DNA from: a virus
Taxonomy: Duplodnaviria > Caudoviricetes
Virus record (IMG/VR): IMGVR_UViG_3300025518_000002
Location: 1 to 49,593 of that record
Strand: one strand, 5' to 3'
Length of the DNA stretch: 49,593 nt
Every line of letters begins with the position of its first letter. Position 1 is the first letter of the stretch. The notes beneath the pieces were generated by a model. That model did no database searches. It worked only from the letters and a program-made list of their open reading frames with translations, and was not told the origin of the DNA. The position numbers were made by a program, and so were the translations under genes. This document shows, piece by piece, positions 4,043-49,273 of this stretch.

Positions 4043-5164
4043 TTAATAATGTAAATCATTCCACTCTGGACCTTGAATAGTATCCAGACGTCCGCCGAAT
4101 GGATTTATAATCTTATTGATAGGATCAATAAATTCTGGTTGCATTTGAAAGTAAGCTTGACGCTTATTGCTAGTCTTACGCATCTTACGGAATACACGAG
4201 CACCAACATAACCAGTAGGACGAGTTTGATCTATCGCTGGAGACCAAGGTAGTCGTCCGTTCTTTTCATCACCAGCAACATCTAAGTGTTCCATTAACAT
4301 CGCACCATCAACACCATGCAAAGCCTTTAATGGTCCTGCCATATCACCTTGCTTTGTACCATGAGCGATAATCAATATTGTACGCTTATCAAGACCTTTG
4401 TAAGGACCTTCAGCTTTTGCTCTATCGTACAAGATAGATATACACGATGTTACCTGCGACGGAGATCCTGGTTCACCTTGAAGTTGCTCGTTAATCAATT
4501 CCATTAATGAGTCTATAACCCATGTCTTAGCATTGATAGTATCTAAAGCACCAATCAAGTCGTGTATTGATTTTGAACGAGCTATTTTGAAATTAGGCTC
4601 AGATACGCGTTCTGCTGTTTCTATGATCGAATCATCATCTTCTTCAGACGAACCGTAAGCACCACCGTAACCGTAATGCATTCCAAACTTTTGAATGTGC
4701 GATATTGCTTGAGTGCATATTGTAGATTTACCTGCACCAGGAGGTCCAGCAACCATCAATACATATCCGAGCGATAAACCTCCACCGATCACATGATCTA
4801 AACCTAATACTCCTGTCGTAGACCGTTGTATTGGTTCACGCTTGTGATTTGTAGGGTCTGTTATCTTTACTTTTTTACTGCTACTAAAGCTTGGATTGAA
4901 TGCAGATGAATTATTGAAACGCTCAAACAATCCATGCTTAGATGAGTTGTTTGTTTGTATTTTAGGTTCACGTATACGAGCTTGATCTAATGGTATTGAT
5001 TTAAATGTGTTGATTGAAAAGCATGACGGACAAGATACAGGAGGTCGCTTACTAGATAAGATTCTATCCAATCCGCAATTAGAGCAACGTACTGCGGATT
5101 GGATTATTTGTTCAGTTACAATATCAAGAGAATCTTCTTGATCAAAATCTTCTGTATTGTTCAT
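4043..5164 (-). CDS. RadA/Sms-like RecA-family ATPase with N-terminal Zn ribbon, lacking the Lon-like C-terminal domain
   Basis: CSNCG...CPSC; TGVLGLDHVIGGGL; Walker A GPPGAGKST; Walker B WVIDS; HGTKQGDMAGPLKALHGVD matches RadA HVTKxGxxAGPxxLEHxVD. Confidence 0.8.
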   Translation of the reverse strand: MNNTEDFDQEDSLDIVTEQIIQSAVRCSNCGLDRILSSKRPPVSCPSCFSINTFKSIPLDQARIREPKIQTNNSSKHGLFERFNNSSAFNPSFSSSKKVKITDPTNHKREPIQRSTTGVLGLDHVIGGGLSLGYVLMVAGPPGAGKSTICTQAISHIQKFGMHYGYGGAYGSSEEDDDSIIETAERVSEPNFKIARSKSIHDLIGALDTINAKTWVIDSLMELINEQLQGEPGSPSQVTSCISILYDRAKAEGPYKGLDKRTILIIAHGTKQGDMAGPLKALHGVDGAMLMEHLDVAGDEKNGRLPWSPAIDQTRPTGYVGARVFRKMRKTSNKRQAYFQMQPEFIDPINKIINPFGGRLDTIQGPEWNDLHY

Positions 5165-30468: not shown

Positions 30469-31821
30469 CTAAAACAACTTATTCTGAACACCAGGAGGTC
30501 CATATTTCTTATACTTCAATTCAGTAGCTTCTTTTTCTTTAAGCTTTTGTTCCTCTATTTGCTTTTGTTTTTGAATCTGAATTTGAAGCTTATCTGCTTC
30601 ATATTTTGCCATCAATTCAGGATTATGTATAAGGCATTCAAAATCAACGTTTTCAATTGATTCGCAAATGCATTTAATCTCTTCAGTTACTTCTGAAATA
30701 ATGTTAGATACTTCTACTTCGATCTGTTTTTGATCTTCGATTTTTTCGATTTCTTTTTCTTCAACCTTTGTTTGTCTATTTTCATCTTCCATGTTCCTGG
30801 AATCTTCGATCCGTATATCGAGTTTGGTATCTCGTAATGTTTGTTCCTTATTACTGATGCCATTATCGATTTTAACCTTCACAGGAACAATAGACTTACC
30901 AATATCATGAACAGAAAAAAGTGTCTTTTGACTCTTACCTAAACAATGTGGCGAACACCATAAACGTTCACGATAACTATTCGCATCAGCTTCAGTACCA
31001 TTACCTCCGCCATAACCTCCTTGCGCCTTCCATTCTAATGTAGTCCAATTATCAGGAGGATTAAATTGACCTTCATAACCACAATAGATGATTCTCATTA
31101 ATGGATTGTCGCCATTTTCAACAGCCCATCTCTGAACATCTCTTGCAACCTTTTGATCTGTATTACCTCCTACAGAATAATCCATCTTACCTTCACCGTA
31201 AGGAGGATCTAATACAATACCTGTAAGACCTCTCTTGTATGTAATAGTTGGAGTACACACACGAGACCAGTCTCCACAAGCTACATGCGTCAATCGTAAT
31301 CGATTCTGAAGCTTCTTAAAGATATCGTATAAATTAGCTATACGATCGTCTGTAAGAATTCCACGATCTAAAATCGCAGGCATCTTACATTCAATCTCTT
31401 TAACGCAAAATCCTCCACCAACCCAATTACATAATCCCCAACACCACCAACCTGCAATTTGTGGATCAAAGTAATAAGGTTCACGAAGCATTCGTTCGCG
31501 AAATTCCTTTTGACGAACAAGCCAATTTTGTCTTGCAATTAAATCAGTTTCATTAACTGGCCAATCGCAATGTTCAGCTACGGCATGTGCGTTGTATTTT
31601 ACAGAACGCCAAAAGTTAGCGACGTAAGAATCAAAGTCATTTACAGACTCCATTTTTGGTTCATGAGGTCTAGCCAATAAGATTGATGCTGAACCCATAA
31701 ATGGTTCAACGAAGTTCTGAACATTACCAAGTATCTCCCATATTAGCGGAGCTACTTTTCGTTTTCCACCGAACCAAATGTAAGGAGATTCTAATACATC
31801 AACCATTACTTGAAGCTCCAC
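30469..31821 (-). CDS. DNA adenine methyltransferase (D12/Dam-like, alpha order) with charged C-terminal extension
   Basis: WFGGKRK, FVEPFMGS (SAM-binding), VND, LDPPY (catalytic). Confidence 0.88.
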   Translation of the reverse strand: MELQVMVDVLESPYIWFGGKRKVAPLIWEILGNVQNFVEPFMGSASILLARPHEPKMESVNDFDSYVANFWRSVKYNAHAVAEHCDWPVNETDLIARQNWLVRQKEFRERMLREPYYFDPQIAGWWCWGLCNWVGGGFCVKEIECKMPAILDRGILTDDRIANLYDIFKKLQNRLRLTHVACGDWSRVCTPTITYKRGLTGIVLDPPYGEGKMDYSVGGNTDQKVARDVQRWAVENGDNPLMRIIYCGYEGQFNPPDNWTTLEWKAQGGYGGGNGTEADANSYRERLWCSPHCLGKSQKTLFSVHDIGKSIVPVKVKIDNGISNKEQTLRDTKLDIRIEDSRNMEDENRQTKVEEKEIEKIEDQKQIEVEVSNIISEVTEEIKCICESIENVDFECLIHNPELMAKYEADKLQIQIQKQKQIEEQKLKEKEATELKYKKYGPPGVQNKLF

Positions 31822-35058: not shown

Positions 35059-35139
35059 GCAATAGTGGCGGAATGGCAGACGCACTCGGCTTAAAACCGA
35101 AGACCGAAAGGTGTATGGGTTCAAGTCCCATCTATTGCA
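35059..35139 (+). tRNA. tRNA-Leu(UAA)
   Basis: Acceptor GCAATAG/CTATTGC; GGCGGAATGGCAGACGC D arm; loop CT-TAA-AA; long variable arm ACC-GAAA-GGT; ATGGG-TTCAAGT-CCCAT. Confidence 0.9.
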
Positions 35140-46113: not shown

Positions 46114-46446
46114 ATGTCAAATATATCCGTATCGGCTCAAATATTCATTTGGATTACGACTACATACGGTATATCCGTAGTAGTATCGCAATCGAAGATA
46201 TTTGAGCCGATACGTTCGTTTATGTATAAACGTATATCTACCTTTTTAGGAGATATGCTTAAATGTATAATGTGCTTTGGATTTTGGGTAGGATTAGTAA
46301 TGTCCTTAGTTTTACAACTAGGACCTAACAATCTGCACACGAATAGATTATATCGAATTGTACTAGATGGATTTGCAACATCCGGGATTGTATGGATTAT
46401 ACATGTTGTACTTTTTAGGTTGCGCGACGAAAACTGCGAAAAGTAG
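46114..46446 (+). CDS. DUF1360-like membrane protein
   Basis: SKIFEPIR...LKCIMCFGFWVG, three TM segments. Confidence 0.7.
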   Translation: MSNISVSAQIFIWITTTYGISVVVSQSKIFEPIRSFMYKRISTFLGDMLKCIMCFGFWVGLVMSLVLQLGPNNLHTNRLYRIVLDGFATSGIVWIIHVVLFRLRDENCEK

Positions 46447-47187
46447 GACGTCAAGTTCTTTTTTTCACTTACAAGGCTCGTGCCAAAGGTTGACTTTCAA
46501 GGTTCGTACCAGAAAGGCAACCTTCAACTTTTGTGCCACCTACAAAACCTACAAACGGTTACTTGTAGCAGAAAAGGTACCTGTAGAACAAGGTAAGTAA
46601 AAACCTTACACGTACGAAACTGTAAAGAAAAACCTCACACCGTACGCCACTGTACCTCTTTGTAGGTAACAGTAAGTCCTTGTAGGTAACTGTAGGTTAA
46701 GGTGTTTGGTACGTTTCCTTCAAAGTAGGTTTTCTGGCACGTTTCTTGAAGCACCTACACTGTAGGTAACAAGGTCCGTGCGCGCACGCGTAGCAGAAAC
46801 CGTGCCAAACCTTACACTAGCAAAACCGGTGCCAAAACCTCGAGTTTTTTCTACAGCAAGGTCCGTGCCAAAATTAAAACCTTGCAGAAACCTGCTAAAA
46901 ACGTAAACTGTAACTTAACCAGACGCTTTCGTACCTTTTCGTGACGCGTTTTTCTCGGTGTTTTTCAACCTAGTGTCACAAAGCGTGACGTTTTCTAGGT
47001 TTCGCAAAACAGGACTAGTGGAAAACGGCCGCTTTCTGGCACTGTAGGTTTTGGCACAGCGTCTGCACTAGCTCTAGGTACGAACGCACCTAGCGAAAAA
47101 GGTTGGCACGAAAAAAAGTCTGTAGTGAAGGACTTGCGAAAGCCAAAAGAGTAACTAAGCTAGGTGGACGAACGGAGGTTTTCGCGA
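46405..47187. promoter_or_regulatory. ApT-free, largely non-coding island with clustered sigma-54 boxes and TGTAGGT repeats
   Basis: One ApT (46873-74) and no CCC/GGG in ~780 bp; nine TGGCAC motifs, four with intact GG-N10-GC. Confidence 0.8.
47134..47161 (+). promoter_or_regulatory. Sigma-70-like promoter, copy 1
   Basis: TTGCGA-16-TAAGCT; CTTGCGAAAGCCA is repeated at 48358. Confidence 0.5.
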
Positions 47188-47469
47188 ATGGAAAACGAAA
47201 AAAGCTTTTGCGCTGAAAAATGGATGGACGAGTCGTACGGTTGTAATAAACCGCACTCGAAAATCACTGAAACTCAGAAAAAGCAAATTCGGTACCTAGA
47301 AAATCAAAACGACCTAGAGATTTTGCGCGGAATGTGGGGTCGAAGTTTTGAATGTTCTTGTAAAACTTGCGGAACAAGTAAACATTTTGGAGCAGCAGAT
47401 AATGCTCGAAAATGGCTTGAATATGGACACGCTGGACATCGAACGTGGATTGATACTCTAAACAGGTAA
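47188..47469 (+). CDS. Small Zn-finger-like hypothetical protein
   Basis: GGAGG at 47174, ATG 47188; CKTCG...HAGH. Confidence 0.65.
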   Translation: MENEKSFCAEKWMDESYGCNKPHSKITETQKKQIRYLENQNDLEILRGMWGRSFECSCKTCGTSKHFGAADNARKWLEYGHAGHRTWIDTLNR

Positions 47470-47470
47470 A

Positions 47471-47524
47471 AGCCGAAACGCACTAATAGTGCGTCCGTAC
47501 GTAAAAGCGTACGCTGATGAGGCT
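47471..47524 (+). ncRNA. Hammerhead ribozyme, type II (HH1)
   Basis: AGCC-GAAA-CGCAC/GTGCG-TC-CGTACG/CGTACG-CTGATGA-GGCT; predicted cleavage after 47495 (GUC). Confidence 0.92.
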
Positions 47525-47528
47525 AAAA

Positions 47529-47735
47529 ATGGAAACTAAAGAAATTGAATCTACACTTCGTCAAATCGGACCAATCGACGAATGTTCATTTCGATATGAT
47601 GAATCTACTAAAACGTACATAGTAAAGATTAAAAATGAAAACGGATTTGTAACCGGAGAATCATCGAGATTGTTGGATGCAATGATTTATGCGATGGAAG
47701 AATATAGAAATCTTCAAGACGAACCTAGAACCTAG
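47529..47735 (+). CDS. Small hypothetical protein between HH1 and HH2
   Basis: METKEIE...; SD-like GAGG lies in the ribozyme 3' end. Confidence 0.6.
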   Translation: METKEIESTLRQIGPIDECSFRYDESTKTYIVKIKNENGFVTGESSRLLDAMIYAMEEYRNLQDEPRT

Positions 47736-47768
47736 AACGCCACAGGATCTAAAAACGATTGGTACTAA

Positions 47769-47824
47769 GGTCGAAACGAACCATAATAGGTTCGTACGTA
47801 CGTAAAGCGTACGCTGATGAGACC
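47769..47824 (+). ncRNA. Hammerhead ribozyme, type II (HH2)
   Basis: GGTC-GAAA-CGAACC/GGTTCG-TA-CGTACG/CGTACG-CTGATGA-GACC; predicted cleavage after 47796 (GUA); stems covary with HH1. Confidence 0.92.
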
Positions 47825-47850
47825 AAGATTTATAAAGGGTATTGATCAAA

Positions 47851-48039
47851 ATGGCAAACGAAAACGTCGAAATGATCGATAACTGTATCGACGCAACACT
47901 CGAAGGAATCAAAGGGTTGCTTTTGATCGAATGGTACGCAAAGGATAACGATACGTGCAAATTGGCGAAGGAATCGCTTCGTAGGATCGCCGAAATGAAC
48001 GATCGATTCGCTCAAATGATCGAATCATGCAGGAAATAG
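47851..48039 (+). CDS. Small helical hypothetical protein between HH2 and HH3
   Basis: MANENVEM... 62 aa. Confidence 0.6.
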   Translation: MANENVEMIDNCIDATLEGIKGLLLIEWYAKDNDTCKLAKESLRRIAEMNDRFAQMIESCRK

Positions 48040-48047
48040 CTTCCGTG

Positions 48048-48107
48048 AAGTTCGAAACGCACACTTGAAAATGTGCGTATGTACGTAAAGCGTACCACTA
48101 AAAACTT
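48048..48107 (+). ncRNA. Degenerate hammerhead copy (HH3), probably inactive
   Basis: GAAA-CGCACA/TGTGCG-TA-TGTACG-TAAAG-CGTAC kept, but CTGATGA is replaced by CTAAAAA. Confidence 0.6.
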
Positions 48108-48152
48108 GGTTATCAAATAATTGAAAGTAGGTTGAATAATTGTTTTAGGTAA

Positions 48153-48438
48153 GGTCCAGCACACTCCATAGGGTGCGAGCCTTCAAAATACAGACCGGAC
48201 CTAGGCCGGGTATTTGCATCGTAGAAATAAGCTACGATGATTTCGAGATCGACACTCGAATTGAAGGTCTAAATCGAAGTGTAGTAACATCTAAAATCGA
48301 AGGCATGAAACCCGTACGGTGGCACGAAAAATAAAGTAGCAGATGGCGAAAAAAGCCCTTGCGAAAGCCACCGAATCGATTTAGAGTGTTTGTGACGCGA
48401 AGTGAAACGAACCTAGCGCGAATAACCGTGCTGGTACC
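48153..48438 (+). ncRNA. Candidate multi-stem structured RNA/DNA element
   Basis: Four-way junction closed by CCTTCAA/TTGAAGG; TCTAAATCGA/TCGATTTAGA; outer CCAGCAC/GTGCTGG. Confidence 0.45.
48359..48387 (+). promoter_or_regulatory. Sigma-70-like promoter, copy 2
   Basis: TTGCGA-17-TAGAGT, preceded by TGGCACGAAAAA as in copy 1. Confidence 0.5.
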
Positions 48439-48462
48439 AGATTTGAAAGGTTGGATATACAA

Positions 48463-49197
48463 ATGGCAAAGCCTGAAACCACTTCCACCAAGTCCGATTC
48501 GAAGCACTCCAACAACAAGGCTCCAGCTGCTACCGTTGCGGCGCCGAAGAATGAGGCTCCTGTGGCTGCAAAATCGAATGTCGTACCGCTCTCAGCTTCC
48601 GAAAAGCACGTCGGAGCGCCTCTGAATAGCAAGGTCGAAGGTGCTCGTGTTCGAACCGGCGCAAAGGGTGTTTCGAAGGCATATCTTCCTCCGATCGCTA
48701 CTCGCCGCAAGATGTTGACCTTCGCGTGCACGCTCGCGACGAAAACGTCGAAGCGCCTCAAGAAATGGACGGCAGAAAAGGCAGAATTCGGCGCCATCGC
48801 AAAGCAGGTTGACGCAGCGATCGTCCAGCTTCAAAGCGCGATGATGGACCTTGACAAGCTTCCTCAGAATTGGGAGCCTACCAAGACGATCGCTTCCGTG
48901 AACGTTGGTGGCTTCTCGCTCGGAGATATTGTCCGTATCCGCGAAAAGCGCCAGAGCCAGTACGCGGATGTTTTGGATGCCGAATCGGTCAAGATGCCGA
49001 TGAAGGTTTCCAAGATCGGAAAGTCGAAGATCGTGGTCGATCTCGGTGGTGGAAAGGTTACCGTAATCACCAAGTCGCATTTGGTTCCGAACAACAAGCC
49101 GATCGAAGAGGAGCGTGCGGAGCAGGCAAAGATCGATCAGGCGCGTAAGGACAAGGCTGCCGCTGCTGCCACCGAAGCTTCGACCGCAGCGAAGTGA
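48463..49197 (+). CDS. K/A-rich basic protein with C-terminal KOW/SH3-like domain, probably highly expressed
   Basis: GFSLGDIVRIRE...KVSKIGKSKIVVDLGGGKVTVI; strongly C/G-ending codons. Confidence 0.7.
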   Translation: MAKPETTSTKSDSKHSNNKAPAATVAAPKNEAPVAAKSNVVPLSASEKHVGAPLNSKVEGARVRTGAKGVSKAYLPPIATRRKMLTFACTLATKTSKRLKKWTAEKAEFGAIAKQVDAAIVQLQSAMMDLDKLPQNWEPTKTIASVNVGGFSLGDIVRIREKRQSQYADVLDAESVKMPMKVSKIGKSKIVVDLGGGKVTVITKSHLVPNNKPIEEERAEQAKIDQARKDKAAAAATEASTAAK

Positions 49198-49203
49198 TAA
49201 GTA

Positions 49204-49273
49204 GTTACTAGTCGCGATACGATGCAACCTACTAATGTGATAATTGGTAGGTTGCATAAACGCGGAAAGTAAC
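49204..49273 (+). other. Long intergenic hairpin (processing site or terminator)
   Basis: ATGCAACCTACTAAT/ATTGGTAGGTTGCAT extended by CGCG/CGCG and GTTACT/AGTAAC. Confidence 0.6.

Follow-up and report, generated by a model that had tools for sequence, protein, structure and literature searches.

Compact type II hammerhead motifs between small phage genes: structure, relatives, and a proposed role in cutting mRNA

What would hammerhead ribozymes do between the small genes of a phage? In the window (the whole 49,593-nt stretch of DNA analyzed here), the plus strand carries, in order, an ApT-poor island, ORF1, HH1, ORF2, HH2, ORF3, and the HH3 remnant (Table 1). The first-pass annotation had read this locus as three hammerheads alternating with genes; that alternation stands for two complete copies, HH1 and HH2, and not for HH3, which is without its catalytic strand.

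Table 1. Features of the hammerhead locus, with positions in the window
Feature	Position	Strand	Basis or remark
Non-coding island nearly free of ApT, with short repeated words	46404..47187		Upstream context
Promoter-like motif (TTGCGA, 16 nt, TAAGCT); predicted unit start	47133..47161	+	Putative function
ORF1, 93 aa from ATG; SD GGAGG at 47174-47178	47188..47469	+	Stop codon separated from HH1 by 1 nt
HH1, full type II hammerhead with its cut predicted 3' of C47495	47471..47524	+	Core, fold, descriptor, model score
ORF2, 68 aa; sole plus-strand ORF of the 301-nt piece	47529..47735	+	SD, start, size
HH2, full type II hammerhead with its cut predicted 3' of A47796	47769..47824	+	Core, fold, descriptor, model score
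ORF3, 62 aa; SD AAGGG ~10 nt upstream	47851..48039	+	ORF call
HH3 remnant, predicted inactive	48050..48108	+	CUGANGA and 3' strand of stem II lost; 5' half and both hairpins kept
Predicted four-way junction, 3' of HH3	48179..48268	+	Fold, z = -3.09

Two complete motifs and a broken copy

Both HH1 and HH2 have full cores, composed of GAAA, CUGAUGA, and an NUH triplet that reads GUC in HH1 and GUA in HH2. The two copies combine CUGANGA, GAAA, and NUH with the A15.1-U16.1 and G10.1-C11.1 pairs, which HH3 does not. Three helices are present in each, with I and III closed by loops and II open, the topology of type II. As had been noted earlier, the cores lie 300 nt apart, at 47514 and 47814; the predicted cuts, after 47495 and 47796, are 301 nt apart. 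The compensated changes in stem II (AGCC/GGCT versus GGTC/GACC), the differing but paired stems III, and the common CGTACG stem I that the same annotation described were all confirmed.

A descriptor covering three hammerhead topologies, run on both strands of the 49.6 kb, returned 2 matches only, HH1 and HH2, compared to 0.005 matches per window over 200 dinucleotide shuffles. Taken alone, segments of 75 to 76 nt folded into the three-way junction with z scores of -2.95 (HH1) and -3.94 (HH2); in 201-nt windows, the native stem II had probabilities of 0.01 and 0.18, respectively, under an equilibrium model that includes neither tertiary energy nor ribosomes. A hammerhead reading of the minus strand was rejected, as it folds but has no core. 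HH1 and HH2 are intact type II hammerhead motifs that probably self-cleave.

The piece between the predicted cuts, 47496 to 47796, contains a single plus-strand ORF of at least 35 aa, in agreement with the first reading. A search for sequence relatives of ORF2 of 37 to 119 aa found none, so its coding status rests on its SD, start codon, and size. Neither ORF2 nor ORF3 matched a family in Pfam or PHROGs, and their Atlas look-alikes scored <0.9, under the bar for naming. ORF1 has one relative, with 72% identity over 66% of the query, and was likewise without a match in Pfam and PHROG searches.

HH3 retains GAAA, a 7-bp stem III, GUA, and most of stem I. Past CU, however, AAAAAC stands in place of the core sequence, and no stem II can form. 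A covariance model gave HH3 23.5 bits versus 67 to 69 bits for HH1 and HH2, both of which were included in building that model. We therefore predict HH3 to be a dead copy. Completion of HH3 in trans by the HH2 strand was considered and rejected, as the hybrid stem II has an energy of 0.0 kcal/mol. Since the core of HH3 is lost, two cuts are predicted rather than three, which would leave ORF3 uncut on its 3' side.

The broken copy could be taken as a sign that the whole cluster is decaying, with the intact copies slow or misfolded in their native context and having no current role. Besides the loss in HH3, the low probability of native stem II in the longer windows fits such a course, as does a result of Perreault 2011, in which 4 members of a set of 18 consensus hammerheads showed no activity (PMC3088659). 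However, HH1 and HH2 differ in stems II and III and yet have each kept every core position, all 16 pairs, U1.7, and the flanking A; we consider decay highly unlikely.

Relatives of the motif and their build

An Rfam search, proposed in the first-pass annotation as a check, mostly failed. The whole window gave no hammerhead match at the gathering cut-off, nor did 3.3 kb searched at E ≤ 10. A 121-nt slice containing HH1 aligned to the whole of RF02276 (Hammerhead_II) at 28.9 bits (E = 1.7e-4), under the gathering cut-off of 37; the 121-nt slice of HH2 had no Rfam hammerhead match, and 0 of 14 related loci matched Rfam at the cut-off. RF02276 has the same core and helix order as HH1 and HH2; however, stem II is 2 bp and loop I 10 nt in the model, compared to 4 bp and 5 to 6 nt in the form seen here.

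Relatives were collected by scans with stem I-based patterns, which picked 3, 36, and 66 stretches in viral contigs, 104 in metagenomes, and at least 120 in GTDB, many of them chance matches. Across 329 fetched loci and the window, the descriptor passed 51 distinct motifs. The loci carrying them, which are redundant, numbered 38 viral, 38 metagenome, and at least 2 GTDB, with one of the GTDB stretches probably due to chance. After L161 (a probable chance match) and a copy in L088 cut by the contig end were left out, 49 motifs from 35 loci and the window remained; L133 is the window's own sequence and was excluded from the counts.

This compact form thus comprises 49 distinct sequences, 47 of them outside the window, and its build is uniform: a 4-bp stem II, a 6-bp stem I, and a short loop I. 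In 42 aligned copies, 99.6% of the cells pair and 14 of the 16 pairs vary on both sides; pairing was a selection criterion for these copies, while variety of pair types was not. An additional U separates A9 from G10.1 in six copies (in L071, L113, L135, L291, L321, and L322). Cultured phages gave no blastn match to HH1. Similarly, single-protein and alignment searches of viral contigs yielded no related DNA for the locus, despite six relatives of the 244-aa protein encoded further downstream.

The majority of type II hammerheads use a pseudoknot, and many hammerheads have no known contact (PMC3088659). Pairing of loop I with the 3' tail over at least 4 pairs was possible in 7 of 49 members, compared to 4.8 with tails shuffled among members, and a count of 7 or more was reached in 201 of 1,000 tail shuffles. 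HH1 offers 2 pairs at best, and HH2 a possible 4-pair A-U match. The compact form shows no pseudoknot signal beyond chance and in this respect differs from the type II consensus of Perreault 2011, which includes a pseudoknot of loop I with the 3' tail (PMC3088659). A motif search of the supplement to that paper gave no match within the part covered; the type II alignment stands outside that part, and overlap with the compact form is possible. In a literature search of papers available without subscription, no paper naming the compact form was found. We regard the compact, uniform, pseudoknot-free form under the Rfam cut-off as a modest new variant, set apart from that of Perreault by its consensus; the arrangement itself is known. 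Because the Rfam cut-off misses this form, phage hammerheads are under-counted.

What might take the place of the pseudoknot? An A lies directly 5' of stem II in 49 of 49 copies (background A, 0.28), including all 27 copies in which it falls outside a stop codon. U1.7 is found in 48 of 49 copies, a count partly forced by two of the search patterns; in array mates that were unselected by the patterns and have other stem I sequences, U1.7 is present in 11 of 11, and the flanking A likewise. The two bases are U47502 and A47470 in HH1. Minimal hammerheads have a Hoogsteen contact between U1.7 and A(L2.4) (O'Rourke 2015, via PMC11875169), and the HH1/HH2 form has both a U at 1.7 and an A at the place equivalent to L2.4. 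As in the sTRSV and Schistosoma structures of such hammerheads, the U lies seven bases past the cut, stem II has 4 bp, and the A stands directly 5' of the stem II strand leading to GAAA. In those structures, however, stem II is closed by a loop whose last base is the A; the phage form has an open stem II with the A flanking it, often as part of the upstream stop codon. The geometry appears to fit, and a single U1.7-A Hoogsteen contact may stand in for the pseudoknot. On the other hand, U1.7 faces G in 40 of 49 copies and could wobble-pair instead, and a section heading of PMC11875169 states that U7 is not essential in the constructs of that study.

Gene context and proposed role of the predicted cuts

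Across the family, the motifs lie between stop and start codons. In 40 of 49, the end of an ORF of at least 35 aa lies no more than 15 nt upstream (null, 8%), and in 41 of 51 an SD with a start codon is found in the next 70 nt (null, 14%). A terminase gene lies upstream, pointing away, in 5 of 12 long viral loci, and other loci adjoin Gam, Erf, RecT, anti-repressor, or primase genes; this family search covered 53 of 60 listed neighboring ORFs, with 7 likely shadow frames left out. The terminase orientation and the Gam, Erf, anti-repressor, and primase neighbors fit early units. No terminase was identified in the window, so the word early, as applied to the HH1/HH2 transcript, rests on analogy.

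The reading that we consider probable is that HH1 and HH2 self-cleave and thereby cut an early transcript into linear single-gene mRNAs, with a protective hairpin for each new end. As follows from the type II topology, the upstream product would end in stem III with a cyclic phosphate, 25 nt past the ORF1 stop, and the downstream product would open, from its 5'-OH on, with the stem I hairpin, which precedes the ribosome site. Speed at cellular Mg2+ would come from the single contact of U1.7 with the A 5' of the open stem II. Early RNA of T7 is processed by RNase III, and RNase E and 3' exonucleases act more slowly on RNA with structured ends of the predicted kind. By giving each new end a hairpin, one 55-nt element would match the role of RNase III in T7, or that of RiboJ, without a host nuclease. 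Moreover, one copy would suffice for the benefit, which fits the many single-copy loci.

The RiboJ insulator also self-cleaves before a ribosome site and leaves a hairpin at the new 5' end, with mRNA raised about twofold and protein two- to tenfold; it is engineered, derived from sTRSV, and used as a single copy after a promoter (PMC6206723). HH1 and HH2, in contrast, are natural, of type II, and located between genes, and the upstream gene would also gain a 3' hairpin. Cleavage by glmS leads to mRNA decay (PMC6765202), and if decay of that type followed, the effect on the life or translation of the HH1/HH2 mRNAs could run either way.

The layout itself has been in print since 2011, and the first reading had already stated that type II hammerheads occur between small phage genes. 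Perreault 2011 described clustered hammerheads that flank single prophage genes in A. tumefaciens, C. scindens, and A. caulinodans, and hammerheads in this layout were shown to self-cleave both in vitro and in E. coli (PMC3088659). The present locus likewise has several copies in intergenic gaps around single small phage genes. Common to those clusters and this one are the type II class, copies between small unrelated genes, the proposal of single-gene mRNAs, and the consideration of circles (PMC3088659), while the dead third copy of this phage is a difference. In D. vulgaris, three type II copies near phage-like genes cleave in vivo, two of them ~300 nt apart (PMC8782182); PMC6155905 and PMC6765202 restate the layout and call the role of phage ribozymes open. 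Cutting into single-gene RNAs, which was proposed from the start and is in print for other phages (PMC3088659), thus remains the best reading, except that the 3' side of ORF3 would stay uncut.

A different use of the cut is suggested by the overlap of HH1 with the ribosome site of ORF2. The ORF2 SD (GAGG, 47519 to 47522) falls within the core and stem II of HH1, being formed by G8, A9, and two stem II bases. HH1 might hide this site until cut, with ribosomes that end at the abutting stop delaying folding; only the 4-bp stem II would hold the products together after the cut, and upstream stops abut the motif in the 40 members counted above. However, compact phage DNA would be expected to have abutting stops in any case, and in HH2 and most family members the SD lies 12 to 49 nt past the motif. 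The SD is predicted to become more open upon cleavage when a 201-nt window is modeled, and not with one of 121 nt. Such a translation switch is, in our judgment, improbable.

The first-pass annotation further suggested that an RtcB-type ligase could circularize the 301-nt piece. A circular single-gene RNA might arise through such a host ligase or through a re-formed hybrid hammerhead: the predicted 5'-OH and cyclic phosphate ends are RtcB substrates (PMC8782182), and the hybrid stem II pairs at 4 of 4 positions here, 2 of them G-U. Among 14 neighboring copy pairs, 7 give four Watson-Crick pairs in the hybrid stem II and 2 include two G-U pairs, but 5 have a mismatch. In the window, the hybrid stem II reaches -2.5 kcal/mol versus -5.2 kcal/mol for the native one, with a probability of 0.0008 in the piece, both ends of which are tied up in local hairpins. 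The 70 window ORFs included no match to RtcB, an RNA ligase, or a reverse transcriptase, and most relatives are single-copy, with two or more copies in 9 of 35 loci overall. In addition, Perreault 2011 sought circular or spliced products and found none (PMC3088659, data not shown there). The suggested circle is not borne out by this evidence and appears highly improbable. Distinctly improbable, too, is a combined scheme for a widespread phage form, in which the last base of the upstream stop-codon region makes the only tertiary contact, a cut gated by the terminating ribosome frees the ORF2 site, and the 301-nt circle forms via the weakened hybrid junction.

Retrozymes resemble the locus in that two hammerheads a few hundred bases apart bound a unit that could be released and circularized; they are eukaryotic, of type I or III, and built of non-coding repeated units (PMC6155905), whereas the phage units hold unrelated genes and no reverse transcriptase was seen in the window. 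The repeated unit, matching hammerheads, and re-forming junction of a retrozyme are not found here: the hybrid is weak in this phage and mismatched in the 5 of 14 pairs already mentioned.

Arrays of 2 to 4 copies occur in 9 of the 35 loci, and 11 of the 12 loci that extend 1.5 kb to either side are single-copy, with the proviso that other ribozyme classes below the Rfam cut-off could be missed there. Intact arrays with differing stem I are found in L065 (522-1830, four copies), L091 (633-1430, three), and L088 (three) and are better test cases than the window. In L266, two copies are near-identical including the SD; its third repeat, at 4678-4760 (+), is reduced to 14 nt from the hammerhead's 5' end and, after ~45 unrelated bases, the downstream SD; it folds no better than shuffles.

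Such patterns raise the question of whether blocks of hammerhead plus ribosome site act as joints for gene gain, loss, and swapping by DNA recombination, with cleavage secondary. HH1, HH2, and HH3 share direct repeats of 17 to 28 nt at a spacing of 283 to 301 nt, the third L266 copy keeps only the outer parts just described, like the broken HH3, and the genes between copies vary across loci in length and number. However, the stems vary with compensation, which keeps the RNA structure while lowering DNA identity, and single copies prevail in the well-flanked loci. A role as recombination joints is thus unlikely, and we favor cutting into single-gene mRNAs.

The locus leaves the phage role of self-cleaving ribozymes unsettled and adds a compact form of 49 sequences. 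These constitute a test set for the question of whether fast cleavage by an open-stem type II hammerhead can be achieved with a single U-A contact. Furthermore, HH1 and HH2 together with HH3 provide a natural pair of predicted active and dead copies for reporters, and the 55-nt hammerhead parts could serve as gene insulators.

Island, promoter-like motif, and neighboring features

The ApT-free island described in the first reading is real, with 1 AT in 784 nt compared to 59 to 79 expected, and contains repeated words such as GTGCCAAA. As a trait of the hammerhead family it was rejected: 36 other hammerhead loci are without it, and the longest AT-free run there is 194 nt. The island is possibly a genome end or origin, or a region kept clear of adenine modification, as this phage has a Dam-type gene. 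Past it, GC climbs from ~0.33 to 0.42-0.50 (47000 to 49200).

A 13-nt motif at 47133 recurs exactly at 48358 and precedes both plus-strand units (second site, 48358-48387). Both copies carry a TTG-type hexamer followed 16 to 17 nt later by a TAnnnT hexamer, and 4 matches with up to 2 mismatches were found versus 0.84 expected. The motif may be the promoter of the plus-strand units. It lends indirect support to the earlier proposal that a transcript leaves the island; a simple sigma-70 scan, however, did not call it as a promoter and found no terminator either.

The predicted four-way junction ranked best among 333 sampled 90-nt windows in a rough scan, and 0 of 200 shuffles reached its fold. 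As a known ribozyme it was rejected: Rfam gave no match, and an exact-pattern search of viral contigs found no relative. Had HH3 been intact, its cut would have freed this junction from ORF3. Further downstream, a Lys/Ala-rich gene of 244 aa (48463-49197) belongs to no family and has six relatives at 56 to 86% identity, three of which sit on contigs of 49 to 53 kb. It is followed, at 49222-49257, by a 15-bp near-perfect inverted repeat with no U run, a possible terminator or processing hairpin.

Among the 70 window ORFs, Pfam and PHROGs recognized phage genes for an endolysin, a virion protein, RecD2, a primase-helicase, Sak4, and a Dam-type methylase (30469-31821), and no terminase or capsid. 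Within 1-32089, where terminase, portal, and capsid went unrecognized in these searches, several large ORFs are without a match, and the relatives' contigs of 49 to 53 kb are of the same size as the window. Variants and joints, looked for in one DNA run (X1) that may be the source of the window, were not seen. A tRNA with anticodon UAA (Leu) and a long variable arm lies on the plus strand at 35059-35139.
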